From: Clostridia bacterium
Lineage (GTDB): Bacteria; Bacillota; Clostridia; TANB77; CAG-508
Length of the DNA: 64,000 nucleotides
Assembly: GCA_017625465.1 (NCBI GenBank)
Contig: JAGAKS010000017.1
Span: 156,946-220,945, forward strand
Direction of reading: 5' to 3'
In this document: positions 2,364-20,577 of the stretch, one piece after another
Position numbering within the stretch: the first letter of the stretch is position 1
How the letters are laid out: each line of letters starts with the position of its first letter
Position numbers and translations under genes: made by a program
Notes under the pieces: model-generated
Databases searched by the model: none
Told to the model about the DNA's origin: nothing
Seen by the model: only the letters and a program-made list of their open reading frames with translations

Positions 2364-2864
2364 ATGTTATATATATGTTCACAAATTGTGGGATTTATTG
2401 GATTTATAATATCTTTAATTGCATATCATAGGGATACCAAAGAAAAGATTTTTAAAAGTATGATTATAGCTAATATTTTAGACATAGTACATTATTTATT
2501 ATTGTCTGCGTACAGTGGCTGCGCTACTAAAGTAATGGCTTTAATTAGAAATATTGTAATTGTTATTAAAGAAAAAATAAAATTTTTACAATCTGTTTTG
2601 ATTTTGGCAATATTTATAATGCTGTATGTTTTGGTAGGAATATTTACATACAATGGCTTTTGGTCAATTCTCCCTGTTTTAGCTGCAATTATTTATATGA
2701 TTGCTGTTTGGAATGGAGATGAAATTACAGTCAAAAAAGCTGCTTTTGCATGCTACTTTTTATGGCTTGTATACAATATATTTGTTTTCTCTATTGCAGG
2801 TATTGTATCAAATACAATTGCTATTGTTTCAACGTTTGTGGCGGTGAGGAGAGAAAAGAGATAG
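2364..2864 (+). CDS. polytopic membrane protein (YgjV-like)
   Basis: 166 aa, several hydrophobic helices; no catalytic motif. Confidence 0.45.
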   Translation: MLYICSQIVGFIGFIISLIAYHRDTKEKIFKSMIIANILDIVHYLLLSAYSGCATKVMALIRNIVIVIKEKIKFLQSVLILAIFIMLYVLVGIFTYNGFWSILPVLAAIIYMIAVWNGDEITVKKAAFACYFLWLVYNIFVFSIAGIVSNTIAIVSTFVAVRREKR

Positions 2865-2894: not shown

Positions 2895-2910
2895 CTCATA
2901 ACCCGAAGGT
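2895..2910. repeat. left copy of 16-bp direct repeat CTCATAACCCGAAGGT (att core)
   Basis: identical 16-mer recurs at 20531-20546; the two copies bracket an integrase-bearing region. Confidence 0.65.
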
Positions 2911-2939
2911 CGTAAGTTCGAGTCTTACCCCCGCAACCA
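2895..2939 (+). tRNA. 3' half of initiator tRNA-fMet (anticodon CAU) - fragment only, no 5' half; forms the left att repeat
   Basis: CTCATAACCCGAAGG = anticodon loop (C-U-CAU-A-A) with three C of the anticodon stem; then GTAAG-TTCGAGT-CTTAC T-arm, CCCCGCA acceptor 3' strand, discriminator A and CCA; near-identical to E. coli tRNA-fMet 3' half. Upstream sequence cannot pair as D-arm/acceptor 5' strand. Confidence 0.75.
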
Positions 2940-2950
2940 AGAAATTAACT

Positions 2951-2988
2951 AGAGTCGCAAGAGATTGCAGACTCTTATTTTTTTGACC
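2951..2988 (+). terminator. rho-independent terminator immediately after the tRNA fragment
   Basis: agagtc...gactct stem followed by TTATTTTTTT. Confidence 0.65.
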
Positions 2989-3028
2989 TTGACGTAATTT
3001 TGACGTAAATGGGGACAGCTTGGGGACA
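2989..3028. promoter_or_regulatory. candidate integrase/Xis arm-type binding repeats (2x TTGACGTAA, 2x GGGGACA)
   Basis: TTGACGTAA at 2989-2997 and 3000-3008; GGGGACA at 3011-3017 and 3022-3028; GGGGACA also occurs twice near the other end (20393-20399, 20404-20410). Confidence 0.35.
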
Positions 3029-3132
3029 CAAGCTTTTATAAAGCTCATAAAATAGCATAAATCCTCATTTATAATATTAAAAAAAGCAATTTTTGAACTT
3101 ATTGAAATCAAGAGTTTTAGCTGATAAGTATG

Positions 3133-4335
3133 TTAGTTTTTATCTACTAATAAATTTTGCAAGACTATACCTGCACTTCTATTATGAGAAGCAAGTGGAT
3201 GGACATAGAAATTAAATGTTGTGCTAATTTGAGCATGTCCTAATCTTGCAGCTACAACTGCTACATCAACATTTTGTGAAATAAGTAGAGTAGCATTTGT
3301 ATGTCTGATACCATGAAAATTCAAATAAGGTAGTCCTATCTTTTGAACAAATTTAACAAACCATTTACTTACTGTATCAGGATGCATAGGTTTGCCATTA
3401 TCTTGTATAAATAATCTATTAGATTCTTCCCAGAATTCACCACAAAGATCTTTTTGACTATCATACCATATTTTATATTCCTCTAGTATTTCGATGACAG
3501 AATCAGGTATAGAAATATGTCTAAAAGAACTAGGTGTTTTAGGTGGTTTTGTATAAACTCCTGTACTTGCTAAATATTGACTTGATTTGTTTACAGTTAT
3601 TTCTTTATTCTTGAAATCAATATTTTCCCAGTCAAGTCCCATTAATTCACCTAATCTAACTCCAGTAAATACTGTAAGAATAATAGCAACCTTATACTTC
3701 ATCTCATTCTCTGCAAGCTCATTTAATCCTTTTAGAAGAACTTTGCATTGTTCATCATCATAGAATCTACGTTGAGCTTTTGGTGCTCTTGGTGGTTGAA
3801 CTCTTTCAGCGGGATTATAAGGTATAAGTTGCCAATATACAGCTTTGTGTAGCATTGCACTTATTAATCTATGATGTTCTAGAATAGTCTTTTTTGATAA
3901 TGGTTTTAAAGTACGTTCACCATTGTTTTTAGCAAGTCTTTTTATTTGTGTATCTTGTTCTAGCATATCATATAATTTCATAAGATTTGTAGGTTTGATT
4001 TTTTCTAAAGTAAAAGAACCTAAGTAAGGAAGAATTCTGCTCTCTAACATTCCAACATATCTGTTATAAGTAGATGGTGCTAAATCTTTTGTGCCATAGT
4101 TTACTTGCCATATATGATAGAATTCTTCAAAAGTTACTGGTTTTCCTTCAGGTACTAATCCACGATTAGCTTCTGTAACAAACTCTGCAAGTGCAATCTC
4201 AGCGTCTTTACGAGTTCCGTGAATAGTTTTTGTTCTTCTAGCTCTAGATCCATCAAGATTTTTACCAGTAGATACTACTAACCTATAAGTATTTTCACCT
4301 CTTTTTTCAATACTCCCAGCCATTGCCTTTTTCAC
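3133..4335 (-). CDS. int: tyrosine site-specific recombinase (phage-type integrase) with N-terminal arm-binding domain
   Basis: C-terminal HGIRHT...LGHAQISTTFNFYVH (R..H-x-x-R...Y catalytic pattern), N-terminal AP2-like arm DNA-binding region, 400 aa. Confidence 0.9.
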   Translation of the reverse strand: MKKAMAGSIEKRGENTYRLVVSTGKNLDGSRARRTKTIHGTRKDAEIALAEFVTEANRGLVPEGKPVTFEEFYHIWQVNYGTKDLAPSTYNRYVGMLESRILPYLGSFTLEKIKPTNLMKLYDMLEQDTQIKRLAKNNGERTLKPLSKKTILEHHRLISAMLHKAVYWQLIPYNPAERVQPPRAPKAQRRFYDDEQCKVLLKGLNELAENEMKYKVAIILTVFTGVRLGELMGLDWENIDFKNKEITVNKSSQYLASTGVYTKPPKTPSSFRHISIPDSVIEILEEYKIWYDSQKDLCGEFWEESNRLFIQDNGKPMHPDTVSKWFVKFVQKIGLPYLNFHGIRHTNATLLISQNVDVAVVAARLGHAQISTTFNFYVHPLASHNRSAGIVLQNLLVDKN

Positions 4336-4596
4336 CTCCTTTCAGGCATAACCATGGGTGAGAGTTTCATATTTAATTGTGATTATTATATATCAAAATA
4401 TTGATGATTACTAGTGGATTTTGCTTATTTTTCAAGTATTACAAAGATTACAGTATAATTCATAAAAGAACTTATATAAAACAATAAAAAACTAGATAAA
4501 ATGTAATATTAGATTAAAATGTCGTAAAAAGTCGAATTATATCAGAAAAAAGATATTACAAATGTTTACTCATATATGGATAAAAAAGGAAAAATA

Positions 4597-4605
4597 TGTT
4601 ATAAT
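4597..4605 (+). promoter_or_regulatory. extended -10 promoter element (TGTTATAAT) upstream of the KAP NTPase gene
   Basis: TGnTATAAT match, weak -35 TGGATA 17 bp upstream. Confidence 0.4.
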
Positions 4606-4620
4606 TTCTGTATCACAAAA

Positions 4621-4655
4621 GAGAAAGTAGAAAATTACCTACTTTCTCTTTTTGC
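4621..4655 (+). promoter_or_regulatory. leader hairpin plus T-run between promoter and start codon (terminator/attenuator-like)
   Basis: gagaaagtag-aaaattac-ctactttctc perfect 10-bp stem followed by TTTTT, located 10 bp before the RBS GGAG. Confidence 0.4.
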
Positions 4656-4670
4656 TTATAGGAGATGAAA

Positions 4671-7600
4671 ATGAAAAAGTTATTATTGAAAATAAAAAGA
4701 ATTGCACTTATGGAGATAAGTTTTAAGAAAAGAAAACAAAATAACAAAATAGAGGGAAATAACAACTCTGTTGTTTATATAAATAAACCTATAAATGAAA
4801 TAAATAATGATGTGCTAGGAATAAATACACACTTAAATAGAATCGACAAAGCAATAGATAAAGGTGCAAATGTTATAGGAATAATAGGAGATTATGGTAC
4901 AGGTAAATCAAGCCTAATAGAATTATTAAAAAATAAGTATGAAAAACCTATTATGATAAATATGTGGAACTATTCTAATGCAAATAGTAATGAAGATGAT
5001 GGAATAAATGGTCTTACAAGAAATTTTTTATTTCAAATGGCTATAGGTGAAGATACAAAATTTGCTCAATATGTAAATAAAAAATTAAGTAAAAATTATG
5101 GGATTTTATCTATAATTAAATCTGGAGAAAAATTTTGGCGTAATTTTATACCTGCAATTGTTTTTTGGATAATATATAAAATTGGAGAAACATTTCCAAA
5201 TAGTATATATGATACAGCTGCATACAAATCACTTAATAATGCATATGGTGCAAACTTTTTTCCAGACGGATTATGGCAAAATATAATATATGTTTTGTAT
5301 GGATTTGTAGCTAATTTTTATATAATATTTGCTTTAGTAGCTTTGTTCTTTGCAATAAAAGCAATTCTAAAAACAACAATAGTTTTTTCTTTATGGGATT
5401 CTCAAGGGAAAAGATGTCCAGATGCAACTGATATATATGATATATATCTAGAAGTTGCTCAAAGAATATTAAAAGGTAAAAATAAAAGAATTGTCATAAT
5501 TGAAGATTTGGATAGAATTAATGATATAGAAAAAATAAAAGAATTTATAAAGGAAATCTATAGATTTAATAATGTATTGCCTGAAAACTTAAAAAATAAA
5601 CTAGTGTATGTGATTGAAGTTAAATCAGAAGAGGCTATGAGTATTATAGAAAACCAAATAGAAGAAGTGAATATAGACAAATTATTTAAAAAAGTTTTTT
5701 ATTTTAAAGTATTATTAAATCCAATTCATAATATGGATTGCGATGAAATAGTTTTGGATTTGCTTAAGAATCAAGAAGAAAGGATAAATAAACAATTAGG
5801 CATAAAACTAGGGAATACACTACCTGAAGAATTTGCGTATATTGTCAAGGGAACAAATTTAACAATTAGAGATTTGAAAGATAGATTAAATAGAAGTTTC
5901 GAAATATATGAAAATCTAGATGAGAAAGGGAAAAAGACGGGTGCAATTATTGATTTTAGAAAATGTACAATTGTAGCTTATTTAGAAAGCAAATATCCAC
6001 AAAGTATTAGAAAGTTTGTAACTGAAGAAGAATACTTCAAAAATCTTCTAAATAATTCATATGTCATTAAGCAAATGCCAAATGTGTCATTAACAGATAA
6101 AAAAGATAGAATAAAAAAACTAATAGATATAAAAATAGATGATGATTTTAAGGATGAAGTAGCTAATTTAATAGCAAATGATCTAATTAATGATGATTTC
6201 AGACTGTATTTTTATAATTACCCTAAAGGTCAGAAAATAAAAAGCAGTGAAGAAGAATATGTAGAACGATTACTATTATATCCAAGCAAAAATGAAGAAG
6301 TAGATGAAGAGAAAATTAAAAAAGCGCTAAAGGAAGATAGCAACATAGTTTACAAATGTTTGGATAGAAGAAGAAAAGAAAATTTATTGTTTGATAGAAC
6401 AATATTTGAAAGTGAGACTTTGTATTCAATAGCAATAAAATTCTTCTATGATAAAGTACAGGAATTATTACAAAAAGATATAAAATGGAAATCTGAATAT
6501 AGAAATGAATCAGGAAGAGTTTTAAATAAAATATCTAAATATAATGTGGATTCAAAGAATCTTTTTGAAGAATATTCAAAGTTTTTAACTAAAGAATTTA
6601 AGCAACTGTCTGAAAAAGAGTTAATAGGTGCAAGGGCAGAGATAATAAAAAATTCCAATGAGTATATTACATGTTTTAAGTCTATATTTATAAATGATGA
6701 TATTAGTTTAATATCGAAAGAAGAAATAGATTTAATAGAAGATATTGGCATTGTAATGCAATTGGTAAATACAGATGCAATAGATGAAAAAAATGCAGAA
6801 TATATAATAAATATACTAAATGCTAATAAATTATCAGATGAGAATTTTATATGTGCAAAAGAAATATATTATTCTATGGATGAAACCGTAGAATTGGAAA
6901 GCATTGCTCATAGTTTATTAGATTTTCTAATGATAAATAATAAAACTGATGATCTATTATTCAAAAATGTTGTAAACAATTATTTGAGTACTGATTCAGA
7001 AATAGAAGAAATAGAGATAGTTAAGTATTTAAATTTATTAGATATTAATGATATTACAGAAGAATATCTAAATAATATTGATTTATTGAAGATAACTGAA
7101 GAATTGTCAGAAGATATACTAAATAAGTTAAAGGAAAATGGATTAAAACATACATTATGGATAAATTTAATTATACAAGATAGATGTAATGAAGTAGACT
7201 TAAGTGAAAATTATGAAGAAAATTTAAAAATTATTTCAGAAATATCTGATGTATTAGATGATAGTATAATAAATCTAAGAAAAGAATTAATAAGTAAAAA
7301 TTTATCAAATGAATATAAAGAACTGTTTTTTGATGATTATCCTATAATTACACCTGAAGAATTGGGAATGTTAGATACTATTGGAGGTATTATTAATTTA
7401 ACGAATTTTAATAAAGTTGATATTAATAATTTAAATGGTATTGTTAATAAAATTAATAATCTATATTCAACAGGAGAAGAATTAATAGAAATTATAGGTG
7501 TATTTGATAAGAAAGAAAATAGTATTTCAGATATAAATATAACAAATAAATTTTTTGATATATTTGAATGGAATAAAGACCTAGTAAAAATGCTAACAGA

Positions 7601-8351
7601 AGATCAGAGAAGTTATATATATAATGTTTTAAAGAACAATTTAAGACTGACTGACTATAACTATGAAATAAAATTTTCACATAAAATAGGTTATATTATA
7701 ACTGAAATAGATAATGAATTATATATAAAGGCTAAAAATGATATAAATTGTTATGAACAGTATATGGAATTAGTAAATCAATTGGATATACCAACAGAAC
7801 AAACTATAACCAATATAATAAACTTTAATAGCGAATATAAACTTAATATTAATATAACGAATTATTTATGGAGCAAAGGATATTATACAGAAAGTATAAT
7901 AGGAAGAGTTCTTTTTGAAAATAGTATTAATGTTAAGTTGGCCAAGGAATCATTAAACCTATATGCAGAGGCATATAATAAAACAGAAAAAGCACATGAT
8001 ATAATGGCTAGTAATGATGAATTTATACAGTTAATGATGGATAATGAGAATTATAAAGAATTTAAGACAAAGAAAAAATTAGAACCTTTCTATAGATTAA
8101 GACAGCCTATAACATTTGTAAAACATGTTTTTGAAACTTTAGAAGAAACAGACATATATGAATATTTAAAATGCAGTTGGCATTTAGATACAGAAGAAGA
8201 TAGTGAAAAATTTCAAAGATTGATTTGTGAAGATAGGTATATAAAGTTTATAGAAAGTTCTGAAATGTATAATATTGTTTGGGAGAAATTATGGAAAACA
8301 TCTCATAAAGGATTATTAACAAAGGCAAGAAATAAAAGATACAATAATTAA
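4671..8351 (+). CDS. KAP-family P-loop NTPase with transmembrane insert and ~800-aa C-terminal extension (1226 aa)
   Basis: Walker A GDYGTGKSS; two to four hydrophobic helices (IPAIVFWIIY..., IYVLYGFVANFYIIFALVALFFAIKAIL) inserted before the Walker B RIVIIEDLDR (hhhhDDLDR KAP signature); start at second ATG (4671) with RBS spacing. Confidence 0.75.
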   Translation: MKKLLLKIKRIALMEISFKKRKQNNKIEGNNNSVVYINKPINEINNDVLGINTHLNRIDKAIDKGANVIGIIGDYGTGKSSLIELLKNKYEKPIMINMWNYSNANSNEDDGINGLTRNFLFQMAIGEDTKFAQYVNKKLSKNYGILSIIKSGEKFWRNFIPAIVFWIIYKIGETFPNSIYDTAAYKSLNNAYGANFFPDGLWQNIIYVLYGFVANFYIIFALVALFFAIKAILKTTIVFSLWDSQGKRCPDATDIYDIYLEVAQRILKGKNKRIVIIEDLDRINDIEKIKEFIKEIYRFNNVLPENLKNKLVYVIEVKSEEAMSIIENQIEEVNIDKLFKKVFYFKVLLNPIHNMDCDEIVLDLLKNQEERINKQLGIKLGNTLPEEFAYIVKGTNLTIRDLKDRLNRSFEIYENLDEKGKKTGAIIDFRKCTIVAYLESKYPQSIRKFVTEEEYFKNLLNNSYVIKQMPNVSLTDKKDRIKKLIDIKIDDDFKDEVANLIANDLINDDFRLYFYNYPKGQKIKSSEEEYVERLLLYPSKNEEVDEEKIKKALKEDSNIVYKCLDRRRKENLLFDRTIFESETLYSIAIKFFYDKVQELLQKDIKWKSEYRNESGRVLNKISKYNVDSKNLFEEYSKFLTKEFKQLSEKELIGARAEIIKNSNEYITCFKSIFINDDISLISKEEIDLIEDIGIVMQLVNTDAIDEKNAEYIINILNANKLSDENFICAKEIYYSMDETVELESIAHSLLDFLMINNKTDDLLFKNVVNNYLSTDSEIEEIEIVKYLNLLDINDITEEYLNNIDLLKITEELSEDILNKLKENGLKHTLWINLIIQDRCNEVDLSENYEENLKIISEISDVLDDSIINLRKELISKNLSNEYKELFFDDYPIITPEELGMLDTIGGIINLTNFNKVDINNLNGIVNKINNLYSTGEELIEIIGVFDKKENSISDINITNKFFDIFEWNKDLVKMLTEDQRSYIYNVLKNNLRLTDYNYEIKFSHKIGYIITEIDNELYIKAKNDINCYEQYMELVNQLDIPTEQTITNIINFNSEYKLNINITNYLWSKGYYTESIIGRVLFENSINVKLAKESLNLYAEAYNKTEKAHDIMASNDEFIQLMMDNENYKEFKTKKKLEPFYRLRQPITFVKHVFETLEETDIYEYLKCSWHLDTEEDSEKFQRLICEDRYIKFIESSEMYNIVWEKLWKTSHKGLLTKARNKRYNN

Positions 8352-8354
8352 AAA

Positions 8355-8392
8355 TAAGTAGAGTCCATTTGGATTCTACTTATTTTTTGCTC
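8355..8392. terminator. bidirectional terminator between convergent KAP NTPase gene and 292-aa gene
   Basis: aagtagagtcc/ggattctactt imperfect inverted repeat flanked by A/T runs. Confidence 0.5.
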
Positions 8393-9254
8393 TATTTTTA
8401 TAAACATTTGCTTTATTCTTACATTGAGGAGTATGATATTCTGCTTTAGGATTAACAGCAAGAAAAGCTTTATTACAGAATTTACATATCTTTAATAGAT
8501 TAATATCTTGTGCTACTGTTTTAGCAAAGTAATAATCGATATATTGTTTTAAACAGGTGATTTGAAATTCAACAACTAAAGTTTCTTTTCTAGATAAACT
8601 CATTTTAATATTGTTAATTTCAAATTGTTTTAATAATTCATCTATATTGTAATTATCTTCATTAGAAATATTATTTAATAAACTATATAAGTATTTAGCA
8701 TATTGAATAAACATATCTAGAGGTTCACAATATAAATTAGATCCTGCTAATAATTTATTTACATCATATAACATATATTTTTCCATGGCAGGAGTTTCAG
8801 CTAATTTAATTGCGGCATTTATTAATTCCTTAATCTGACTATCATCACAAGTAGGGAAGAACAATTTAAAATATTTCTTTCTATCTACTACTGTTGTTAA
8901 ATCAGAATTTCCAATATAGTTATAATCTTTTAAAACTATTTTATTATCTAAGAAAAAGTATTTATTTAAAGGTAAATCGTTTATTAATCCTAATGTAGAA
9001 TATTTATTTACAAAGTCTAAAACACTTTTTTCTATATCATTTTCGTTATAAAAAGCTAATTTACCAATATTTAATAAATCTATTAAAATAGATTCTTCAA
9101 AATCTTTTTCTATATCAATTAATGGAGCACCACTAGAGTGCTTTTTATTTATACTATCTGAAACTATATATTTAGTTTTGCTTATTTCTTTAATTTCATA
9201 TTTAGCAAATTTAAAAATATTTTTTCCTTCAAATGCACTAAAATTAAGGCTCAT
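8376..9254 (-). CDS. hypothetical protein (292 aa) with C-terminal Cys/His cluster, convergent partner of KAP NTPase
   Basis: long ORF with strong RBS (AGGAGG); C-terminal CKFCNKAF...HTPQCKNKANVYKNRAK suggests zinc-ribbon; no other motif recognised. Confidence 0.5.
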   Translation of the reverse strand: MSLNFSAFEGKNIFKFAKYEIKEISKTKYIVSDSINKKHSSGAPLIDIEKDFEESILIDLLNIGKLAFYNENDIEKSVLDFVNKYSTLGLINDLPLNKYFFLDNKIVLKDYNYIGNSDLTTVVDRKKYFKLFFPTCDDSQIKELINAAIKLAETPAMEKYMLYDVNKLLAGSNLYCEPLDMFIQYAKYLYSLLNNISNEDNYNIDELLKQFEINNIKMSLSRKETLVVEFQITCLKQYIDYYFAKTVAQDINLLKICKFCNKAFLAVNPKAEYHTPQCKNKANVYKNRAKNK

Positions 9255-9509
9255 ACGAATACCTCCTAAAAAATTATAAAAAATTTACAGTAAGCCCTTG
9301 ACAAACATAATAGATTACTGATATATTTTAACCAGAGTAAGTGATTATTACACAAAATCAATTACAGAAGTAAAAACCAGTCAAGACCTGACTTTTAAGT
9401 AAAATTACAGCATAAAACAAGTAATTGATTACTTACAATAATAGCTTACCACACAAAAGATAAGTTGTCAACAAAGAAGATAAAATTTCAAAAGAAAGGA
9501 GGAATGTAT

Positions 9510-9707
9510 ATGGAATTTCAGGAAGTCAAAAGAATAACTCTAACAATGAGAGAAGCAGCAGACTATTTAGGAATATCATATTGGTTAATTAATCAATTGG
9601 TTAAGAAAAAACAAATACCATATTCAAAAGTAGGCGGCAAGTTCTTGTTTAGAGTAAAAGCACTGGATGAATATCTATGTGAAAAAGAACGAGCTTCAGT
9701 AAGATAG
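9510..9707 (+). CDS. xis: excisionase / AlpA-MerR-type HTH DNA-binding protein
   Basis: LTMREAADYLGIS...LVKKKQIPYSKVGGKFLF helix-turn-helix of the excisionase (HTH_17) type; start at ATG after AAGGAGG. Confidence 0.65.
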   Translation: MEFQEVKRITLTMREAADYLGISYWLINQLVKKKQIPYSKVGGKFLFRVKALDEYLCEKERASVR

Positions 9708-9723
9708 CAAAGGAGGAAGAAAA

Positions 9724-10200
9724 ATGGTTGAAGTTCATTGGTTTAAGATACAGGCAGATATATTTGACAATGAAAAAATTAAAAAACTACTTAATAGTAG
9801 GGATGGGGACACCTATTGTAGAGTATGGTTTCAACTATTAGCATTAGCTGCAAAGTGTAATGCACATGGAGCAGTTCTACTTGGTGAGAATATTCCAATA
9901 ACAATAGATGATCTTGCAAGAATTATGAACAAGACAGTAAACAAGCTTGCAACGATCATGCAACAACTAGTGAATCTTCACATGATATTCGTAGAAGATG
10001 GAACAATCTATATTAAAAATTGGGATGTTTACCAAAATCTTGATAAGCTCGAAAAAATCAAGGAAGACAACAGGAAAAGACAGCAAAGATTTAGAGATAA
10101 ACAAATGATAAATAACGTTACTGTAACGTTAGATAACGCAGAAGATAAGAATAGAGAAGAAAAGATTAGAATAGAAAATGATAGTGGTTTTAAAGACTAA
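9724..10200 (+). CDS. phage replisome organizer N-terminal domain protein
   Basis: WFKIQADIFDNEKIKKL...YCRVWFQLLALAAKCNAHGAVLL matches the replisome-organizer N-terminal pattern; strong RBS. Confidence 0.6.
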   Translation: MVEVHWFKIQADIFDNEKIKKLLNSRDGDTYCRVWFQLLALAAKCNAHGAVLLGENIPITIDDLARIMNKTVNKLATIMQQLVNLHMIFVEDGTIYIKNWDVYQNLDKLEKIKEDNRKRQQRFRDKQMINNVTVTLDNAEDKNREEKIRIENDSGFKD

Positions 10201-10235
10201 AAAAGCAATTTTTAATTATGAAAGGAGAAATTTAT

Positions 10236-11048
10236 ATGATAAGTACAAGAACAATTAAAAGAGAAAAATGTAAATTCTGTGGAAAGGAATTAGAACAAAA
10301 GACAATGAGTTTTATAGTAGGAGATAGAGAGTTCGTTCTATCAGGAGAACCTGTAAGATGTGACTGCATGAAAGCAAAGATATATTGGAAAAAGGTTGAT
10401 GATAGAAGAGCTGCAATAGAATATAAAAGGGAGTATAACAGAAAGATGATGCTAAGAAAGAGATATTACTTAAATAGCAAAATGAACAAAAGATTAATGG
10501 AATATAATTTTGAAAATTATATGACTAATAATGACAATAGAATGGCTTATGAAAAGTCAAAAAGGTATGCAGAGAATTTTGTAAAAGGTGATAATAAAGG
10601 AAGCTTATTTATAACTGGAGGAGTTGGAACAGGTAAAACACATTTAGCAGCTAGTATTGCAAATTACTTAATAGAAAATGAAATACCAGTTATATTTGGA
10701 ACACTAATAACTTTACTAAATGATATAAAGGACACTTACAAAATTGATGGCGATTGTGAGAGTGATGTTATTGAAAAATATTCAAAGATTCCATTGTTAA
10801 TAATTGATGATTTGGGTAAAGAAAGACCTAGTGAATGGACATTAGAAAAGCTATTTACAATAATAAATAATAGATACGAAAACAATTTACCAATAATAAT
10901 TACAACAAATTATAACAAGGAAAAGTTAAGAAAAAGACTTTTATGTAATAGCAATGAAGAAATAGTAGATTCTATAATATCAAGACTTTATGAAATGTGT
11001 AGAGGAATAATCATCTTTGGAAAAGACAAAAGAAAAGAGTTAGTATAA
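10236..11048 (+). CDS. DnaC/IstB-like AAA+ ATPase (helicase loader) with N-terminal Cys cluster
   Basis: Walker A GGVGTGKTHLA, Walker B LLIIDDLGKE, sensor region TTNY; N-terminal CKFCG...RCDC. Confidence 0.75.
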   Translation: MISTRTIKREKCKFCGKELEQKTMSFIVGDREFVLSGEPVRCDCMKAKIYWKKVDDRRAAIEYKREYNRKMMLRKRYYLNSKMNKRLMEYNFENYMTNNDNRMAYEKSKRYAENFVKGDNKGSLFITGGVGTGKTHLAASIANYLIENEIPVIFGTLITLLNDIKDTYKIDGDCESDVIEKYSKIPLLIIDDLGKERPSEWTLEKLFTIINNRYENNLPIIITTNYNKEKLRKRLLCNSNEEIVDSIISRLYEMCRGIIIFGKDKRKELV

Positions 11049-11133
11049 GCCGCAAAACTAAATACTAACCCAAATGTTTATAAATATATTTTAATATAAA
11101 ATTTTAGAAAAGTAAATAAAAAGGAGGAAAGTT

Positions 11134-11490
11134 ATGGATATAACTTATAAAAAAGTAGGAGATTATTATTATCCTGAATTGGAATTACCAAAAAAATATA
11201 AGGATTTTAGATTAGATAAATATGGAAGGTTAAGACTTAATTATTTAAAGGAAAATAAGCATATACAATATGAAATTATGAAGTGTGAAGATACTTTAAT
11301 AGATCATTTAAAAGAAGTACAAGAGTTAGCTAATAAAAGATACAATCAGCTTATGGAAGAGTTCAAAAAGAGAGAAAATATTACTGAAGAATTAAAACAA
11401 AAAGACCAAATGAAGTGGGTTGGACTAATGAATAATATAAGCAATTGTGTAGATGAAATTGTACTAAAAGAATGCATTTATGATGATTAA
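11134..11490 (+). CDS. TnpV-like transposon-encoded protein
   Basis: MDITYKKVGDYYYPELELP...YGRLRLNYLKENK resembles TnpV N-terminus of clostridial mobilizable transposons. Confidence 0.5.
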   Translation: MDITYKKVGDYYYPELELPKKYKDFRLDKYGRLRLNYLKENKHIQYEIMKCEDTLIDHLKEVQELANKRYNQLMEEFKKRENITEELKQKDQMKWVGLMNNISNCVDEIVLKECIYDD

Positions 11491-11493
11491 ACT

Positions 11494-11616
11494 TAAGGAA
11501 TAATGCCTGAATTTTTGAAACAAATTTGGGCATTTCCTTCCATATTTTAGTTATAAGTTATGTATCAGCAAGCAATGAATTTCTGTAGCTCGAAATTCAA
11601 AATGGGGAAATTCCCC
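11494..11616. promoter_or_regulatory. candidate oriT / relaxase promoter region with inverted repeats
   Basis: imperfect hairpin AAGGAATAATGCC...GGGCATTTCCTT (11494-11539) and perfect 13-bp palindrome GGGGAAATTCCCC (11604-11616) immediately upstream of the relaxase start. Confidence 0.4.
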
Positions 11617-11649
11617 AAGCCCCTTTTTATTTTTAGAAAGGAGAAAATT

Positions 11650-12483
11650 ATGGCTACAACAAAAATATGGAAAGTAGAAAAAAGATTAGATCATGTGATG
11701 GATTATACAACTAATGAAGAAAAAACAAAAAATGAATATTTAGAAAATGGAGTAGATGATTACGATAGCATAAGACAAGTAATGATGTATGCAACTAATG
11801 CAGATAAAACAGAAAAACAGTTTTATACAACAGGTATAAATTGTGATGTGGATTCTGCAGTAGAAGAAATGAGAAATGCAAAAGATTTCTGGCACAAAAC
11901 AGATGGCATATTAGCATTTCATGCAGAGCAATCGTTTAAAGAAAATGAAGTAACACCAGAAATTGCTCATGAAATTGGAGTAAGACTTGCAGAAGAAATG
12001 TGGGGAGATAGATTTCAAGTAGTAGTATCTACCCACTTAAATACGAAACATCTTCATAATCATTTTGTAATTAATTCAGTTTCCTTTAAAGATGGATATA
12101 AGTATTATAGTAATTTTGAAAATACAGCATTATTAAGGAAAACATCAGATGAACTTTGTGAAGAATATGGCTTAAGTGTATTAGAAGAAAAGAAATGTAA
12201 ATCTGGAATTAATTTTGAGAACTTTTATAAAAAACATATACAAGAAAGTGATTATCATAAAGAAGTTAAAGAGGATTTAGATTATGCAATTAAAAATTCT
12301 TATACTACAAAAGATTTTCACAGAATATTAGAATCAATGGGATATAACTATTATTATAGCGCAGGAAAACTATCTGTAAGGAGAGAACCATATAAAAGAA
12401 ATATAAGAGTTGAAAGAGCTTTTGGAGAAGAATATTCTGTTGATAATATTACAAAAAGAATTCTTCAAAATGATTATGTTTGA
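11650..12483 (+). CDS. MobA/MobL-type relaxase (mobilization nuclease domain); terminates at an in-frame TGA
   Basis: HLHNHFVIN HUH-type histidine motif, upstream tyrosine-containing N-terminus; start at ATG 11650 after AGGAG. The ORF-track N-terminal extension from 11560 is rejected. Confidence 0.8.
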   Translation: MATTKIWKVEKRLDHVMDYTTNEEKTKNEYLENGVDDYDSIRQVMMYATNADKTEKQFYTTGINCDVDSAVEEMRNAKDFWHKTDGILAFHAEQSFKENEVTPEIAHEIGVRLAEEMWGDRFQVVVSTHLNTKHLHNHFVINSVSFKDGYKYYSNFENTALLRKTSDELCEEYGLSVLEEKKCKSGINFENFYKKHIQESDYHKEVKEDLDYAIKNSYTTKDFHRILESMGYNYYYSAGKLSVRREPYKRNIRVERAFGEEYSVDNITKRILQNDYV

Positions 12484-12651
12484 AGACCAGATATAGTCCC
12501 TTATAGAATTACAAAAGCAAAGTTTTATTCATCTAAGAATAGCATAAAGAGAAAATATAAGCCTAAAGGAATAATTGCATTATATTACTATTATAAGTTT
12601 TTATTAGGCTTTCATAAAAAGAACAATATAGAATATAAGCTAACACCAGAA

Positions 12652-13026
12652 ATGCAAAAAGAAGTAAAGAAAATGGAATTCTATTCAGAACAGATTAGAT
12701 TTATGTGTAAATATAAGTTGGAAACAACAGATGCAGTAGATGAGCTAAAAACTAAGAAACTTAGAGAAAAACAAATAATACTAAATAAAAGAAACAAATT
12801 ATATTATCACAGAAATAAGTGCAATAATGAGGAAGATAAGGATTCTATTACTAAAGATATTATTCTTGTTACAGATATGCTGAAGAAAGTAAAGAAGGAA
12901 ATAAAACTATGTGATGTAATTTATAATAATGCTCCAGAAATGAAACAGCAAATTAAAGAGGTGGAAGATAAGGAACTGGAAAAGGAGCAAAAACAAAAGA
13001 GAAAAACAAAGAGTTATGAATTGTAA
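12652..13026 (+). CDS. Lys/Glu-rich coiled-coil protein, same frame as relaxase (possible C-terminal relaxase segment or MobC-like accessory)
   Basis: in the same frame as 11650-12483 with no other stop between 12484 and 12651. Confidence 0.4.
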   Translation: MQKEVKKMEFYSEQIRFMCKYKLETTDAVDELKTKKLREKQIILNKRNKLYYHRNKCNNEEDKDSITKDIILVTDMLKKVKKEIKLCDVIYNNAPEMKQQIKEVEDKELEKEQKQKRKTKSYEL

Positions 13027-13153
13027 AATAGGCACAGAAATGTGCCTATTTTACATACGCATAAAAAATGCATAATATATATATTAAATACGTATAAAAA
13101 TGTTGACATGAAATCATTTTATTTATATAATACAAAAAGAGAGGTACAAAAGT

Positions 13154-13324
13154 ATGAAAGTAAATAAAAAGGGAAGACCAAAAGGTATAAAAAAAGATGA
13201 AAGATTACATGTGATGATATCAAGTGATTTGAAAGAAAAATTCCAAAAGAAGGTTGAACAAGAAGGAAGCAATATTTCAGTTAAAACATGTGAATTAATA
13301 TCTAAATATATTGAAAATAATTAA
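13154..13324 (+). CDS. small basic protein, ribbon-helix-helix-like (56 aa)
   Basis: MKVNKKGRPKG...RLHVMISSDLKEKFQKKVEQEG pattern (beta-strand then two helices) typical of CopG/Arc regulators; RBS GAGAGG; not in ORF track. Confidence 0.35.
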   Translation: MKVNKKGRPKGIKKDERLHVMISSDLKEKFQKKVEQEGSNISVKTCELISKYIENN

Positions 13325-13346
13325 CTAAAAAGAGAAGAGGTATAAT

Positions 13347-14147
13347 ATGGGAACAAATATATATGATGAAAGAAATACAGTAAATGACCTTACAGGTTCA
13401 GAATGGAAATTCAGCACAAAAACAGTTATTAATAAGGCTTATCCTATAAATATGCAACATAAGTTAAGATCGGAACATGGAGGTCAAAAACCACCAGAAT
13501 TATGTGCTGATATCATAAAAATTTTTACTAAAAAGGGAAATTTAATTTTAGATCCTTTTATGGGAGTGGGTGGTACACTACTTGGCGCAAGTCTTACAGA
13601 TAGAAATGCTATAGGAATAGATATAACGAAAAGATGGATAGATATTTATAAAGAAGTTAGTAAATTAGAAAATTTAAAGGAACAAAAAACAATACTAGGT
13701 GATTCTCTAAAAAAATTAGATAAAATAGAAAATGATTCAGTAGATTTTATACTAACAGATGTACCATATTGGAATATCGATACATTAAAGCAAACAAGGA
13801 ACAAGAAAATAAAGCAATCTAAACTTAATAATTTTGACAATGATACGCAAAATCAGACAAAAGAAGAATGGCTACAGCAAATGTATGATATAATATATAA
13901 AGCATCTAGAAAATTAAAAATTGGAAAATACATGGCTATATTTATAGGAGATATGTATAGAGATAAAGAATATCATTTTTTATCTGCTGAACTAGCTATG
14001 AAAATAAATGAGGCAGAAGATTTGAAGATGAAATCCAATATTATTTGGGTAGACAACAGCAAATCATTACATGTTTTTGGATATCCTAGAGCATATGTAC
14101 CATCGATGATACATCAAAATATATTAGTTTTTAGAAGAGAGGAATAA
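13347..14147 (+). CDS. DNA methyltransferase, N4-cytosine/N6-adenine family (variant DVPY motif IV)
   Basis: HGGQKPPEL followed by AdoMet motif DPFMGVGGT, then TDVPYW in place of canonical (D/S/N)PPY. Confidence 0.7.
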   Translation: MGTNIYDERNTVNDLTGSEWKFSTKTVINKAYPINMQHKLRSEHGGQKPPELCADIIKIFTKKGNLILDPFMGVGGTLLGASLTDRNAIGIDITKRWIDIYKEVSKLENLKEQKTILGDSLKKLDKIENDSVDFILTDVPYWNIDTLKQTRNKKIKQSKLNNFDNDTQNQTKEEWLQQMYDIIYKASRKLKIGKYMAIFIGDMYRDKEYHFLSAELAMKINEAEDLKMKSNIIWVDNSKSLHVFGYPRAYVPSMIHQNILVFRREE

Positions 14148-14150
14148 AAT

Positions 14151-16049
14151 ATGAGTAGTTTATTACCTAAGAATGAATATAAATTTAAAAATTTAGAAAA
14201 AGAAGAATATGAAAATGGTAAGGTATTTTATTTTTATTGTGATAACTTACAAGAAGGAATGCATATTTTGTTTTGGCTAGAAGAGTATAATAAAGAGATG
14301 AAATTAATAAAAAGAGGGTATAATGGTATATCTAATTATATATCTATTTATGATATAAATGGAGAAAAATATACAATTATAATTTGCTCTTTTTATCATA
14401 ATGGTGAATTGCCACGATTAGTTAGACAAATAATATATAAAATAGATAAACCTGATGTAGTAATATATTCACAAGATGAGGATAAAATAGTATGTGGAAT
14501 TGAAAATACAGAGACTGGATTTGTTGGAAATGCGACATGGCAAAGACATGGAAGAATAATGAATTTTTTAGGTAATGATTTTCCTTTTGTATTTTTTGCT
14601 TATTATTCTAAAAAAGATATTTCACAAGATACAATCAGAAAACCAAGCCCATTACTAGTTTTATCATTTTTTTCATTATCTATCGAATATTCAACACCTG
14701 CAATATTATCATTATATGATCACGAAGATATAACACAAAATATAATAAATGATGATGGCTCAAAAATGATTGATACAAGAAAAGAATCTTTGAGCTATAT
14801 ATTAAGCTTGATGCTGCATGGACAGGACGCAGATGAAACACAAGAAAAATTAAAAAAATGTTTTTACGATATGAAATATTATTATAAAGAAGAAATAAAA
14901 AGAGTTAAGAATAATGAATTACCTTTAAAAACATTAGAATTATTGAGAAAAGATAATTTTGAAGATGAAATCGTAGAAAAAATCATAAAGAAAGATAAAA
15001 ATTATCCATTGTTCTTTAAAGATATATCTCCATGGAACCCAGTATCAGCAAAAGAATTTAAAATAAATAATGAAAAAGTTGGAATAGGTGAATATATAAA
15101 AAATCAATTATATGATATTGATTTTTATCAATTATCACCTAAATGTCCAGTTGGAATTACTTTTGACACAAATAAATTGGTTACTAGATTAAATGAAATA
15201 AAAAATACAGGTGATTATTTTTGGGAAGATTCTTTAAGATTAGATATTCCAACTATAATTATATTATTAAAGCTTACTAAAAAAGGAAAATTAGCATTAC
15301 CAGATCCATACAATGGTAGAATTCCAGCTTTTTATGAGCTTTATAAACAATCTTTTGGAGAAATTAATTGTATTATATATTTAATGGATCATTCAAGCGA
15401 AAATGAATATGATCCAGCTTATGCAAAAAATATGAAAATATATAAGTCGATTAATGATTATGCTACAATTTTTCTAGATAGAGATTTAAATGTACTTGAT
15501 AAAAATTGCGATAAAGCAGTAAAGGACTCTAGAAAAAAATATGAAGAAGAAATAACAGAAGATAATGTTACATGTTTTTTTGAAACAATACTCAAAATGG
15601 AAAACATAAAGCCTTCATTTATAAATCCACCATGTGGTTCTTGGTCTGATTTTAAATTATATCCTATAAATAAATTTTTCTATTTAAAAAGAGATGATGA
15701 TAGGCCAGATATTGCATATTATATTCCTAAAAATCAACAACTATACTTTAATGATGGCATATATTATGTAGGAGAAAGTAAAGCAAACTATTCATCATTT
15801 AAAAATGATGAAAAATTCAATTTTGAAATAGAGAGAATTAATAGATTAATTGAAATTATAGACAAAGAAATAGGTATAGATTTAAAATATAAATCATTTA
15901 TATTATTTAAAGGAATTGCAGAAGTGGGAATAGAAATAGTAAATGAAGTACGTGAAGGTAAGAAAAAACATGTGGATTATGTTGTGGTTATTGAAGAAGA
16001 CAATGAGAATATAGAATATAATATTAGGATGATTATATTAGAGGTATAA
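14151..16049 (+). CDS. hypothetical 632-aa protein, putative restriction endonuclease (possible PD-(D/E)xK: KPD-x8-DEDK)
   Basis: tightly packed between two methyltransferases (4-nt and 1-nt gaps); KPDVVIYSQDEDKIV resembles PD...(D/E)xK; otherwise no motif. Confidence 0.35.
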   Translation: MSSLLPKNEYKFKNLEKEEYENGKVFYFYCDNLQEGMHILFWLEEYNKEMKLIKRGYNGISNYISIYDINGEKYTIIICSFYHNGELPRLVRQIIYKIDKPDVVIYSQDEDKIVCGIENTETGFVGNATWQRHGRIMNFLGNDFPFVFFAYYSKKDISQDTIRKPSPLLVLSFFSLSIEYSTPAILSLYDHEDITQNIINDDGSKMIDTRKESLSYILSLMLHGQDADETQEKLKKCFYDMKYYYKEEIKRVKNNELPLKTLELLRKDNFEDEIVEKIIKKDKNYPLFFKDISPWNPVSAKEFKINNEKVGIGEYIKNQLYDIDFYQLSPKCPVGITFDTNKLVTRLNEIKNTGDYFWEDSLRLDIPTIIILLKLTKKGKLALPDPYNGRIPAFYELYKQSFGEINCIIYLMDHSSENEYDPAYAKNMKIYKSINDYATIFLDRDLNVLDKNCDKAVKDSRKKYEEEITEDNVTCFFETILKMENIKPSFINPPCGSWSDFKLYPINKFFYLKRDDDRPDIAYYIPKNQQLYFNDGIYYVGESKANYSSFKNDEKFNFEIERINRLIEIIDKEIGIDLKYKSFILFKGIAEVGIEIVNEVREGKKKHVDYVVVIEEDNENIEYNIRMIILEV

Positions 16050-16050
16050 T

Positions 16051-17073
16051 ATGAAATATATAGGTAATAAATCTAGGTTAATTGGATTCATTGAAGAGTG
16101 CTTAAAAGATTTTAATATTAATTATAATAATTGTAAGGTTTATGACTTGTTTTCAGGAACAGGAAGTGTTAGTGAATTTTTTTTGAAAAATGATTGTAAA
16201 GTGTTATCATGCGATAATATGAATTATGCTATAGCAGAACAATATAGAAGACTATATTTTAGAAAAGAGCCTATATTTAATGAATTGAAAAATATAATTG
16301 GATATGAAAAATTAGATGATATATTAAAGTATTTGAATAGTTTAGAAGGAAATGAAGGATATTTTTTTGAAAATTTCTGTGAAGAAGGAAAATATAAAAG
16401 AAGATTTTTTAGTAGCTCAAATGCAAAAAAAATAGATGCTATAAGAAATAAAATAGACGAATGGAAAGATATATTGCCTTATGAAAAATATATTTTTTTA
16501 GTTGGTATTTTAATGAATTCAGCAGATTTTGTTTCAAATACTGCTGGTACATATGGTGCATATTTAAAAATATGGAGAAGTATGGCGCTAAAAGAATTAA
16601 AACTTGAAAAACCAGAGTTTATTAATAGTGGAGAAATCAAGATGTATATCAGTGATGTTATTGATTTTGTAAAAGAACAAAACAAAGCAGATATTGTATA
16701 TCTTGATCCACCATATAATACAAGACAATATCCTGCATATTTTAGTGTTCTTGAAAGCATTGTTGTAAATGATAATCAAGTTTTAAATGGAAAAACGGGA
16801 TTAAGAAATTATGAGAAACAAAAATCTAAATTTTCAATAAAAAAAGATGTAAAAGAGGAATTTGAAAAGCTTATTAACAATATTAAATCAGATTATATTG
16901 TGATGAGTTATAGTACAGAGGGAATATTAGATTCAAATTTTATAATGGAAGTGTTAAAAAGAAAAGGTAAGACAAAGATGTATAATACATCTTATAGAAG
17001 ATTTAAAACTAATGCATGGACAGAAAAGAATACAAATCTAAAAGAAATATTATTTATATGTAAAGTATTATAG
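16051..17073 (+). CDS. Dam-like (D12 class) N6-adenine DNA methyltransferase
   Basis: N-terminal YIGNKSRL, AdoMet motif DLFSGTGSV, catalytic DPPY. Confidence 0.8.
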   Translation: MKYIGNKSRLIGFIEECLKDFNINYNNCKVYDLFSGTGSVSEFFLKNDCKVLSCDNMNYAIAEQYRRLYFRKEPIFNELKNIIGYEKLDDILKYLNSLEGNEGYFFENFCEEGKYKRRFFSSSNAKKIDAIRNKIDEWKDILPYEKYIFLVGILMNSADFVSNTAGTYGAYLKIWRSMALKELKLEKPEFINSGEIKMYISDVIDFVKEQNKADIVYLDPPYNTRQYPAYFSVLESIVVNDNQVLNGKTGLRNYEKQKSKFSIKKDVKEEFEKLINNIKSDYIVMSYSTEGILDSNFIMEVLKRKGKTKMYNTSYRRFKTNAWTEKNTNLKEILFICKVL

Positions 17074-17082
17074 GAGGAATAT

Positions 17083-18357
17083 ATGGAAGAATTAGATACA
17101 AAGAAAGTATTTACAGATACAAAAGATTATCCATTAAGCATAATTAAAGAAATGTTTGATGACGGAGATATAATCCCACAACCAGATTATCAAAGAGATT
17201 ATATTATGGATGAGAAAAAAGCATCAAAATTAATTGAATCTGTTTTATTACAAATACCAATTCCTACGGTTTATCTTTGTGAAGAAAGTGATGGTACACT
17301 ATCTATAATAGATGGACAACAAAGACTAACTTCATTTGTGAAATTTCTAAAAAATGAATTTGCTTTAAAAAACTTAGAAGAATATACCGATTTTAATGGA
17401 AAAAGATTTGCAGATTTAGATAAGGCAGTTCAAAGAACAATAAAAAATACAAGTATTCATTCAATAGTTATAAAAAAAGAATCACAAGAACTAAAATATG
17501 AAATATTTGCAAGATTAAATCAAGGTTCTACAAGTTTAAAGCCACAAGAATTAAGAAATTGTATATATAGAGGTAGCTTTAATAATATGCTAGAAGATAT
17601 TTCAGAAAGCAATAAGACACTAGCTTTTCTTATAGGAACTGAAAATAAGAGAAAAAACTATCAGGAAACAATATTAAGATATTTTGCATTAAAGAATTTT
17701 CAAGAATATAGCAGTTCAATATCTAAAACATTAAACTTGTATATGGAAAAACATCAAAATGACTCAAAAGAAGATATTGATCAATTTAAGAAAGAATTTA
17801 ATTCAAATATAGATATTATTAAACAAGTGCTTGGAGAAGATGCATTTTTTGGATATGATAGAACAAAAGGAAAAATGATGAATAAGTTTAGTGGCTCTAC
17901 ATACGATTCAATTATTATTGGATTTTCTATGTTTAACAATCATGATATCATGGTGCATTCAGATGAAATAAGACAAAGAATAAAAGAAATGAAAATGAAT
18001 GATCCAGAATATCAAGATTATACATATGCTGCAACAGGTTCAAAAGTTAGAGTTATTGGAAGAATTATGAAAGTATATGAATTACTTTCTCAAATTATTG
18101 GTAAAAAAGGTGATTATGGAGTAGAAAGAACATTTTCCAAAGAAACAAAGGAAGACCTATGGCATGAAGGCTATATTTGTTCATATTGCGGAAATGAAAT
18201 ATTAAGTATGGATGATGCAGAAGTTGATCATATAGAGGCATTTGTATCTGGAGGAGAGACAATTAAAGAAAATGCACAATTGCTTCATAGACATTGTAAT
18301 AGAGAAAAACATGATAATGACGTAGAGTTTGAAAATGAAGAAGAATTAGAAAACTAA
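17083..18357 (+). CDS. DUF262 (ParB-like, DGQQR) + C-terminal HNH nuclease; GmrSD-like type IV restriction-type protein
   Basis: IIDGQQRLTSF DUF262 hallmark; C-terminal CSYCG...VDHIEAF...HRHCNREKHD HNH motif. Confidence 0.75.
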   Translation: MEELDTKKVFTDTKDYPLSIIKEMFDDGDIIPQPDYQRDYIMDEKKASKLIESVLLQIPIPTVYLCEESDGTLSIIDGQQRLTSFVKFLKNEFALKNLEEYTDFNGKRFADLDKAVQRTIKNTSIHSIVIKKESQELKYEIFARLNQGSTSLKPQELRNCIYRGSFNNMLEDISESNKTLAFLIGTENKRKNYQETILRYFALKNFQEYSSSISKTLNLYMEKHQNDSKEDIDQFKKEFNSNIDIIKQVLGEDAFFGYDRTKGKMMNKFSGSTYDSIIIGFSMFNNHDIMVHSDEIRQRIKEMKMNDPEYQDYTYAATGSKVRVIGRIMKVYELLSQIIGKKGDYGVERTFSKETKEDLWHEGYICSYCGNEILSMDDAEVDHIEAFVSGGETIKENAQLLHRHCNREKHDNDVEFENEEELEN

Positions 18358-18365
18358 ATTGAAAC

Positions 18366-18417
18366 AAAAGCAAAATAGGTTTGGAAACAGACATTTCCTA
18401 CATTATTTTGCTTTTTT
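18366..18417 (+). terminator. rho-independent terminator after the 4-gene operon
   Basis: aagcaaaata...tattttgctt stem followed by TTTTTTT. Confidence 0.5.
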
Positions 18418-18476
18418 TATACAAATTTCGACAAATTTCTTGAAAAAAATATTGTAAAATATGAAAGGAGGTAAAA

Positions 18477-19976: not shown

Positions 19977-19977
19977 A

Positions 19978-20010
19978 AAGGAAATAGAAAAACTATTTCC
20001 TTTTCGTTTT
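19978..20010. terminator. bidirectional terminator
   Basis: ggaaatag-aaaaa-ctatttcc stem followed by T-run. Confidence 0.55.
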
Positions 20011-20546: not shown

Positions 20547-20577
20547 ATTTTCCCATCTTCCCACAATCCCCAATCTA

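Follow-up and report, generated by a model that had tools for sequence, protein, structure and literature searches.

Williams reportedly distinguished, in 2002, an anticodon-loop sublocation class of tRNA-targeting integrases, and NBU1 and ICEBs1 are known to use secondary attachment sites. In the Islander model of islands that target tRNA and tmRNA genes, a tyrosine integrase gene lies by an attachment (att) site, the island carries a 3′ part of the target tRNA that regenerates the gene, and direct repeats mark its ends (PMC4383910). Integrative mobilizable elements (IMEs) of the Firmicutes combine integrase (Int), excisionase (Xis), and relaxase genes with the absence of conjugation genes, use site-specific att sites, form tandem arrays with related or decayed elements, and carry variable cargo slots (PMC5704250). 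Both secondary sites and tandem arrays have been documented, for SGI1 (PMC2297512) as well as for other IMEs (PMC5704250). Here we describe an island of 17.65 kb (positions 2895 to 20546) in a 64,000-nucleotide stretch of a Clostridia bacterium genome (GenBank assembly GCA_017625465.1, contig JAGAKS010000017.1, positions 156,946 to 220,945), hereafter called the window. The island and its relatives have the traits listed above, and its left boundary carries the 3′ half of an initiator tRNA (tRNA-fMet). This half is probably a piece of the element itself that serves to rebuild the target gene, orphaned here because the IME inserted at a secondary, non-tRNA site of 16 bp between ygjV and yqeG.

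The locus departs from the Islander model in two ways: a whole tRNA is lacking at both junctions, and 16 bp stand at the far one instead of a displaced 3′ fragment. Since the regenerated tRNA and the displaced fragment are both lacking in the window, we file the island as a family member at a secondary site. It differs from the described Firmicutes IMEs in its target, tRNA-fMet, in its hosts, which are uncultured low-GC gut Clostridia, and in a backbone with a phage-type replisome organizer, a DnaC-like protein, and TnpV. The element is of an ordinary kind, and its family appears to be undescribed; the literature searched described neither this family nor, for gut Clostridia, the use of tRNA-fMet as the target of an IME, which is absence of evidence only.

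Positions 2894 to 2939 on the forward strand (GCTCATAACCCGAAGGTCGTAAGTTCGAGTCTTACCCCCGCAACCA) form the 3′ part of tRNA-fMet, which begins with the anticodon loop (CAT) and the CCC strand of its stem, continues with the variable loop and T arm, and closes with the 3′ strand of the acceptor and CCA. The match to positions 31/32 to 76 of intact tRNA-Met(CAT) genes of related genomes is perfect (e.g., L005, L104, and L108; L numbers denote the loci and contigs compared), and these genes show the initiator features, a GGG/CCC anticodon stem and C1xA72. The 46-mer did not occur in 100 shuffles. Folding of the region gave the T-arm hairpin and a second hairpin at 2951 to 2975, followed by TATTTTTTT at 2976 to 2984 (z = −2.85; minimum-free-energy and centroid folds). 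This G+C-containing hairpin directly before a U-run makes 2951 to 2984 a predicted intrinsic terminator. A strict terminator pattern scan missed the hairpin because its stem contains a 1-nt bulge. The terminator sequence, agagtcgcaagagattgcagactct, is kept 3′ of the fragment in L005 to L013 and L104 to L113.

The rest of the cloverleaf, i.e., the 5′ strand of the acceptor and the D arm, is absent, and the upstream DNA (42 nt of AT-rich sequence, preceded by the last part of ygjV) supplies neither part. ARAGORN called no tRNA anywhere in the window, Rfam gave none there at the gathering threshold, and a permissive Rfam search returned only a 12.8-bit partial tRNA match at 2907 to 2928. The sole other copy of any part of the fragment in the window is the 16-mer CTCATAACCCGAAGGT at 20531 to 20546, with no displaced native 3′ fragment at that junction. 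A sequence-only reading of this DNA had described a tRNA-fMet 3′ half with its own terminator and no 5′ half at the left boundary, and only a 16-bp core at the right; both descriptions were confirmed, and the tRNA predictor it proposed as a check found no intact tRNA spanning the fragment. Both junctions recur in independent Logan contigs, from two samples each. The left-hand pair (L001/L002) crosses ygjV, the 42 nt, the core, and 14 nt of the T arm, ending at ...cgtaagttcgagtc, and the right-hand pair (L003/L004) starts at window position 20441 and crosses the right end of the element (its P arm), the core, and yqeG. Neither a 5′ half nor a native remainder was found in these junction-crossing contigs.

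To whom the tRNA half belongs was read from 80 loci that encode relatives of the integrase, taken from one-genome-per-species contigs and all from uncultured gut Clostridia. About 130 related junctions were read in all, and the integrase-proximal junctions counted number about 75. In BLAST comparisons of the window with these loci, homology begins at 2894/2895 in about 60 related elements, whatever lies upstream, and nearly all of the ∼75 integrase-proximal junctions carry this 45-nt fragment on the strand opposite to int, at a distance of about 195 nt from its stop codon and in most cases with the same terminator. The position where homology starts and the conservation of the fragment beside int mark fragment and terminator as element DNA, the P′ arm of attP. 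Their assignment to the element and not to the host is thus strongly supported by this comparison, as is the suggestion of the sequence-only reading that the element may carry its own partial tRNA. In about 30 junctions (29 to 30 by census), cgcggggtggagcagttggcagctcgtcggg precedes the fragment and ARAGORN calls an intact tRNA-Met(CAT), which indicates that relatives in this family rebuild an intact chimeric tRNA-fMet at integration. The expectation that a canonical element should regenerate a tRNA at one junction is borne out at these loci and fails at about 45 others.

The window allele of the fragment is the commonest of 27, with 56 copies, 20 of which are joined to a 5′ half. The element-borne T-stem pairs covary (GTAAG/CTTAC, GTAGG/CCTAC, GATAG/CTATC, GCAAG/CTTGC, GGAGG/CCTCC, and others). 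The T stem is fully paired in all 11 alleles joined to a 5′ half, and four broken alleles occur only in orphan fragments. Likewise, the anticodon stems are complementary in each of 29 rebuilt tRNAs. These compensatory T stems and complementary anticodon stems indicate that the tRNA piece is under selection as the working half of a tRNA.

Two further arrangements of the target gene were seen among the relatives. In L080, a group I intron (11507 to 11757, minus strand; Rfam RF00028, 86.8 bits, E = 1e-22) splits the anticodon loop of a tRNA-fMet gene (exons at about 11742 to 11780 and 11455 to 11500) that adjoins a related integrase (83% identity); lying inside the heptamer in which strands are exchanged (see below), the intron would destroy the att site. 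In three other loci, an orphan fragment and an intact tRNA-fMet stand in inverted orientation 1.4 to 8.5 kb apart (L008, 11416 and 12867 to 12942; L063, 6651 and 12146 to 12221; L081, 1044 and 9509 to 9584), pairs that could reflect integrase-mediated inversions.

The 16-mer core combines CTCATAA, the anticodon loop of the tRNA, with CCCGAAGGT, and is an exact direct repeat on the forward strand at 2895 to 2910 and 20531 to 20546. The point of strand exchange was located from natural junctions. Each of two P-arm families (L027/L060/L061 versus L045; L079 versus L048) occurs in front of both CCCGAAGGT followed by cgtaag... and CTCTAAGGT followed by gagttt.... The core version therefore tracks the downstream arm and not the upstream arm, so that core positions 9 onward belong to the P′ side. 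Identity to the tRNA begins in the P arms at C32. Together these junctions point to an exchange within the 7-nt anticodon loop CTCATAA(C), left of core position 9, and the anticodon stem that flanks the loop supplies inverted half-sites. A crossover in a 7-nt loop flanked by the symmetric anticodon stem is what characterizes the anticodon-loop class.

A sub-family whose integrases are about 65% identical carries CTCATAA followed by C-T-C-T-A-A-G-G-T and then non-tRNA DNA, giving the P′ arm CTCATAACTCTAAGGT. This arm, CTCATAACTCTAAGG(T/C) and then gagtttgaaat..., lies about 150 to 300 nt past the int stop codon (L045, L047, L048, L050, L053, L056, L057, L064, L075, and L082). It consists of the anticodon loop and the 9-bp half-site, and as it lacks both T arm and acceptor, rebuilding of a tRNA from it is impossible. 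A junction with a tRNA 5′ half is found in none of these loci. The situation parallels tRNA-dependent lysogeny, in which mycobacteriophage integrases fail to rebuild their tRNA target and the common core is short (PMC10865867). Those phages, however, carry a whole compensating tRNA gene, whereas the window element carries a rebuilding half.

The consensus of both core types past the heptamer is C-Y-C-K-A-A-G-G-Y, and the 16-mer may accordingly be described as a crossover heptamer plus a 9-bp candidate integrase half-site (CCCGAAGGY). The analogy comes from the Tn916-family integrase of mv4, whose core has a 7+7+7 organization (bioRxiv 10.1101/2023.11.06.565760). Like that heterobivalent enzyme, the present system has a SAM-like N-terminal domain in its integrase, a Tn916-type Xis, an apparent 7-bp exchange region flanked by short half-sites, and candidate arm-type repeats in both arms. 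It differs in the asymmetry of its attP, where the left half-site (tgaatt) is no mirror image of the right. The repeats in question are two copies of TGACGTAA (2990 and 3001), the only ones in the window, and two of GGGGACA (3011 and 3022) in the P′ arm (2990 to 3028, forward strand), and TGTCCCC (20334) and two copies of GGGGACA (20393 and 20404) in the P arm (20334 to 20410). Of the GGGGACA/TGTCCCC copies in the 64 kb, seven in total, five are no more than about 200 nt away from an end of the island. Both motifs are kept in relatives, and they are candidate arm-type sites that the integrase may bind.

Two other models were rejected. Exchange at the right edge of the core (around GAAGGTC/TCGTAAG) had been favored by the end of right-flank similarity at positions 15 to 17, by CCCTG in the L149 and L013 tRNAs, and by the inverted repeat ACCCGAA/TTCGAGT; arguing against it, the same P-arm families take CCCGAAGGT or CTCTAAGGT according to the downstream arm, and an apparent attL/attR polymorphism in L149 is void, since the left tRNA of that locus and its right junction do not belong to one element. 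A Tn916-like model, in which the circle joint would carry two cores, was dropped, as no double cores were found in the viral_contigs collection or in the junctions read and as it would not rebuild tRNAs.

These observations suggest the following course of events. When the circular element meets a chromosomal tRNA-fMet gene, the tyrosine integrase would exchange strands in CTCATAA, and the element copy would replace the 3′ part of the gene, rebuilding an intact chimeric initiator tRNA next to int. The int gene is convergent with the tRNA, and the predicted terminator of the element would end the tRNA transcript before it runs antisense into int. In the genome of the window, the element would instead have recombined with a secondary site in the ygjV-yqeG interval that offered only the heptamer and the adjacent 9-bp half-site CCCGAAGGT. 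Insertion at such a site accounts for both ends of the island, since the rebuilding piece then adjoins DNA that is not tRNA and would be inert, and nothing but the 16-bp core is left at the other end. The predicted circle junction is ...ggctaattgaattCTCATAACCCGAAGGTcgtaagttcg... and the predicted empty site ...aaaatagtaggttagCTCATAACCCGAAGGTattttcccatc..., and several family members would have used the 16-bp site in this interval. Insertion away from the primary target at a site resembling the core is also the pattern of SGI1 (PMC2297512). Known secondary sites, however, match the core in part, whereas here the 16-mer copies are perfect and, across strains, no fewer than two or three different elements have used the locus.

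The flanks of the island were examined in other strains of the species, reached by exact-protein look-ups. Spx, ORF96, Xis, and variants of YqeG and YgjV were informative queries, and look-ups of YgjV, YqeG, CinA, Dfx, and Int returned same-strain contigs only. On the left, the window has a gene for a ygjV-like membrane protein of 166 aa (2364 to 2864, forward strand; Pfam PF10688), and on the right a gene for a yqeG-family HAD phosphatase (20611 to 21108, forward strand; assigned by Pfam and by the NCBI name of the identical protein P0121). In the sister strains L085 and L088 to L090, as in the 93% homologue P0241, YgjV has 176 aa and ends in ...EKTCNKV. The window protein is about 10 codons shorter at its C terminus. 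Homology to the 176-aa form breaks at 2852/2853, and the window has lost about 50 nt, the original stop codon among them (window 2364 to 2864 against L085 6483 to 7013). Because the 93% homologue shares the 176-aa tail, the window ygjV is a derived truncation.

Between this break and the core lie the 42 nt on the B side of attL (2853 to 2894), which are not shared as a block with other loci. They show weak collinear similarity to the DNA that follows ygjV in L085, ending at the island boundary of L085 (17 of 500 shuffles reach the score), and probably represent intergenic DNA of the chromosome. The right flank (20547 to 20610, forward strand), which includes the promoter region of yqeG, is conserved in two strains, from core position 16 in L117 and from 20556 in L114.

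The ygjV-yqeG interval is a hotspot that holds four different islands across strains of one species, namely, the intact IME of the window, a decayed relative without int, a UvrD/Fic island, and an element with another right arm. In L085/L114, an intact 176-aa ygjV is followed by a 9.6-kb decayed element relative with a relaxase remnant, other defense genes, and an ORF96 homologue, lacking int and the core, and then by yqeG; homology to the window resumes at 20556. In L086/L116 the interval holds an island with UvrD, Fic, 1210-aa, and protein kinase genes. In L117 the P arm of a different element runs into CTCATAACCCGAAAC, after which comes the chromosomal flank also seen in the window, TATTTTCC...CTTCCCACAATCC. 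In L150, of the 93% YgjV lineage, ygjV is followed by a NUDIX gene. A pairing of L111 with L101 as filled and empty sites was uninformative, since homology ends about 300 nt before the core. The search for an intact tRNA-fMet between the two genes in related strains, proposed with the sequence-only reading, came back empty, with no tRNA in any of the five strain versions of the locus. No initiator tRNA gene is shown to have been lost there. To call the initiator tRNA at this locus nonfunctional is therefore literally true and yet misleading, as nothing indicates that a tRNA-fMet gene ever stood at this place.

Four points weigh against insertion at a secondary site. The empty site was not found in genome and metagenome collections (the pattern GAAATGAAAATAGTAG N{5,35} CCCATCTTCCCACAATCC had no match in genome_contigs or metagenome_contigs), so that the pre-insertion sequence is itself deduced. 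A 16-bp match to tRNA-fMet is too long for chance, and the secondary site must descend from tRNA or att DNA. The truncation of ygjV, with its break 42 nt left of the core, implies some rearrangement beside the junction. Finally, isolated 15-mers were absent from 2 Mb of related flanking DNA; they are thus not common free-standing targets, and solo cores were rejected as such.

Across the family, about 45 of the 75 integrase-proximal junctions (∼60%) lack a 5′ half, a further departure from the Islander model. Many of these are internal joints of tandem arrays, with recurrent P arms or ORF96-like genes upstream, and in L022, L043, and L111 an intact tRNA lies 3 to 7.5 kb upstream of the fragment. 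Such arrays fit the accretion model of IMEs and cis-mobilizable elements (CIMEs) (PMC5704250), a source that cites Pavlovic et al. (2004) for tandem accretion with decayed CIMEs. They also raise the possibility that the window element was once the inner member of an array at a true tRNA-fMet gene, and that the array came to be fused to ygjV and yqeG by later deletions, which took away the 5′ half with the upstream element or elements, as well as the displaced native 3′ remainder. The frequency of arrays, the tRNAs found upstream, the decayed relative at the same locus in L114, the ∼10 codons missing from ygjV, and the unclear origin of the 42 nt are all compatible with this history. It would, however, require two independent deletions, each stopping precisely where the 16-bp core meets its outer flank. 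DNA similar to the 42 nt follows ygjV in the sister strain, the right flank is common to L117 from core position 16, and no tRNA or remnant is detectable at the locus in any strain. We therefore regard accretion followed by deletion as unlikely; the narrower proposal of the sequence-only reading, loss of the 5′ part by deletion, is disfavored by the same flanks, which resemble the sister chromosome up to the junction on the left (weakly) and are chromosomal and conserved on the right.

For the P-arm family of the window, 43 right junctions in about 33 contexts were collected. In about half, an intact or visibly decayed tRNA remainder follows, with a series graded from intact to heavily decayed (L120, L142, L149, L130, L145, L134, and L122), and in about half there is no detectable remainder directly after CCCGAAGG, in this too unlike the Islander model. 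The gradation, together with the occupation of the locus in several strains and the need for the 16-mer to be tRNA-derived, is what an ancient tRNA-fMet gene between ygjV and yqeG might leave if it had decayed except for 16 bp kept in use as an attachment site. Such a relic is a shade less probable again than deletion from an array. The window flanks retain no similarity to either tRNA half, neutral decay would strike the 16-mer as often as its surroundings, and no tRNA stands beside ygjV or yqeG in the related-species loci available. In alignments of 20547 to 20610 with the T arm and acceptor, no similarity was detectable (z = −0.4 and 0.9), and a hypermutated tRNA remainder, real at some other loci, was rejected for the window. 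The idea that the element entered a pre-existing tRNA remnant thus survives only in a weak form, in that the target held at most the 16-bp tRNA-like core, with no further remnant.

An assembly artefact, in which the assembler joined ygjV to the element through repeated tRNA-like sequence, is highly improbable. In its favor, the source is a metagenome-assembled genome, and the same-sample Logan contigs stop within the fragment (L001/L002) or begin within the P arm (L003/L004). Against it, these independent contigs, from two samples for each join, cross both critical joins, and dozens of unrelated assemblies show the same architecture, one of them a 1.4-Mb NCBI contig (L100).

The remainder-less right junctions (L100, L106, L110, L121 to L129, L133, L136, L144, L147, L148, and window position 20547) share several features. 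In about 16 contexts, only T or C occurs directly after CCCGAAGG (position 16); the base that comes next is C in 9 of the 16, and in 5 the sequence continues with TCA. Their flanks are G-poor, often with a TGnTATAAT-like promoter 50 to 100 nt further on. In L110, a rebuilt intact tRNA-fMet stands at the left (3333 to 3408), and at the right only the core CTCATAACCCGAAGGC (19337 to 19352), followed by unrelated DNA; lacking the remainder, this locus would be left with a truncated tRNA gene upon excision. No copy of the right end of the element was found in IMG/VR. The pile-up of right junctions at the edge of the half-site is not predicted by random decay. It is conceivable, if on balance doubtful, that the 16-bp unit of anticodon-loop crossover and 9-bp half-site behaves across the family as an attachment site that is portable and self-sufficient. 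If, in addition, an integrase-dependent process removes the native 3′ half that was displaced, the host's tRNA-fMet copy would depend on the half supplied by the element, a form of addiction, and such removal would seed new non-tRNA attachment sites like that of the window. In either case, the sharp boundary at the right junction is an oddity in the evolution of tyrosine recombinase sites.

For annotation, tRNA halves beside integrases in low-GC gut Clostridia are to be read as element-borne attP arms and not as pseudogenes of essential tRNAs. The comparison also exposes a very widespread IME family that shuttles defense systems, targets the initiator tRNA, piles up in arrays, and is often found at non-tRNA sites. 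Its 16-bp core is a candidate minimal attB for the integrase, possibly useful in organisms without genetic tools.

Turning to gene content, the island is classed as an IME because it encodes an integrase, an Xis, and a relaxase and has no conjugation genes; on this basis it is an IME that carries defense cargo. The tyrosine integrase (396 aa; 3133 to 4323, reverse strand; Pfam PF00589 and PF14659) ends 194 nt from the tRNA fragment and has 3232 homologues at E ≤ 1e-30. Next to it, a first variable cargo slot holds a 1228-aa P-loop protein (4665 to 8351, forward strand), which had no Pfam or PADLOC match; in relatives this slot is swapped for CBASS, OLD-TOPRIM/UvrD, KAP NTPase, radical SAM, and other genes. 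A 292-aa backbone open reading frame (ORF) (8376 to 9254, reverse strand), likewise without a Pfam or PADLOC match, is present in all 10 loci from the Xis look-up. The Xis-like helix-turn-helix protein (65 aa; 9510 to 9707, forward strand; Pfam HTH_17 and Tn916-Xis) is found as the exact protein in 7803 indexed blocks of the public collection, and near-identical element backbones occur at many sites in many genomes.

By Pfam, a replication/maintenance module follows (9724 to 11490, forward strand), with a phage replisome organizer N domain, a DnaC/IstB-like ATPase, and TnpV, and then a MobA/VirD2-type relaxase (11560 to 12483, forward strand; PF03432). No type IV secretion system or coupling-protein domains were found by Pfam among the 19 island ORFs scanned. 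The second variable slot (13347 to 19976, forward strand) holds defense genes identified with Pfam and PADLOC, namely, an N6/N4 methyltransferase, a 632-aa ORF, a Dam-type methyltransferase, a GmrSD-HNH protein (NsnA/PD-T4-2-like), and an AbiO/Nhi-like helicase; both methyltransferases are type II. The right-end ORF96 (96 aa; 20011 to 20301, reverse strand) was found as the exact protein in 220 blocks, always about 230 nt from the right core. At the attR, the P arm ends in ...ggctaattgaatt before the core, and a tandem junction in L049 matches the window to exactly 20546.

Upstream of yqeG, the 17-nt motif TGGTATAATTGTGGAAA (window 20577 to 20594), made up of an extended −10 box and the start region, is identical 5′ of unrelated genes in several genomes (L113, 19399 to 19415; L107, 337 to 353; L006, 12472 to 12488; L093, about 5490 to 5506). 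It was considered as att DNA and set aside as a shared promoter-like motif. Farther to the right, the stretch of about 575 nt that separates the desulfoferrodoxin gene from the M23 peptidase gene (23230 to 23804) contains only low-complexity ORFs on the minus strand.

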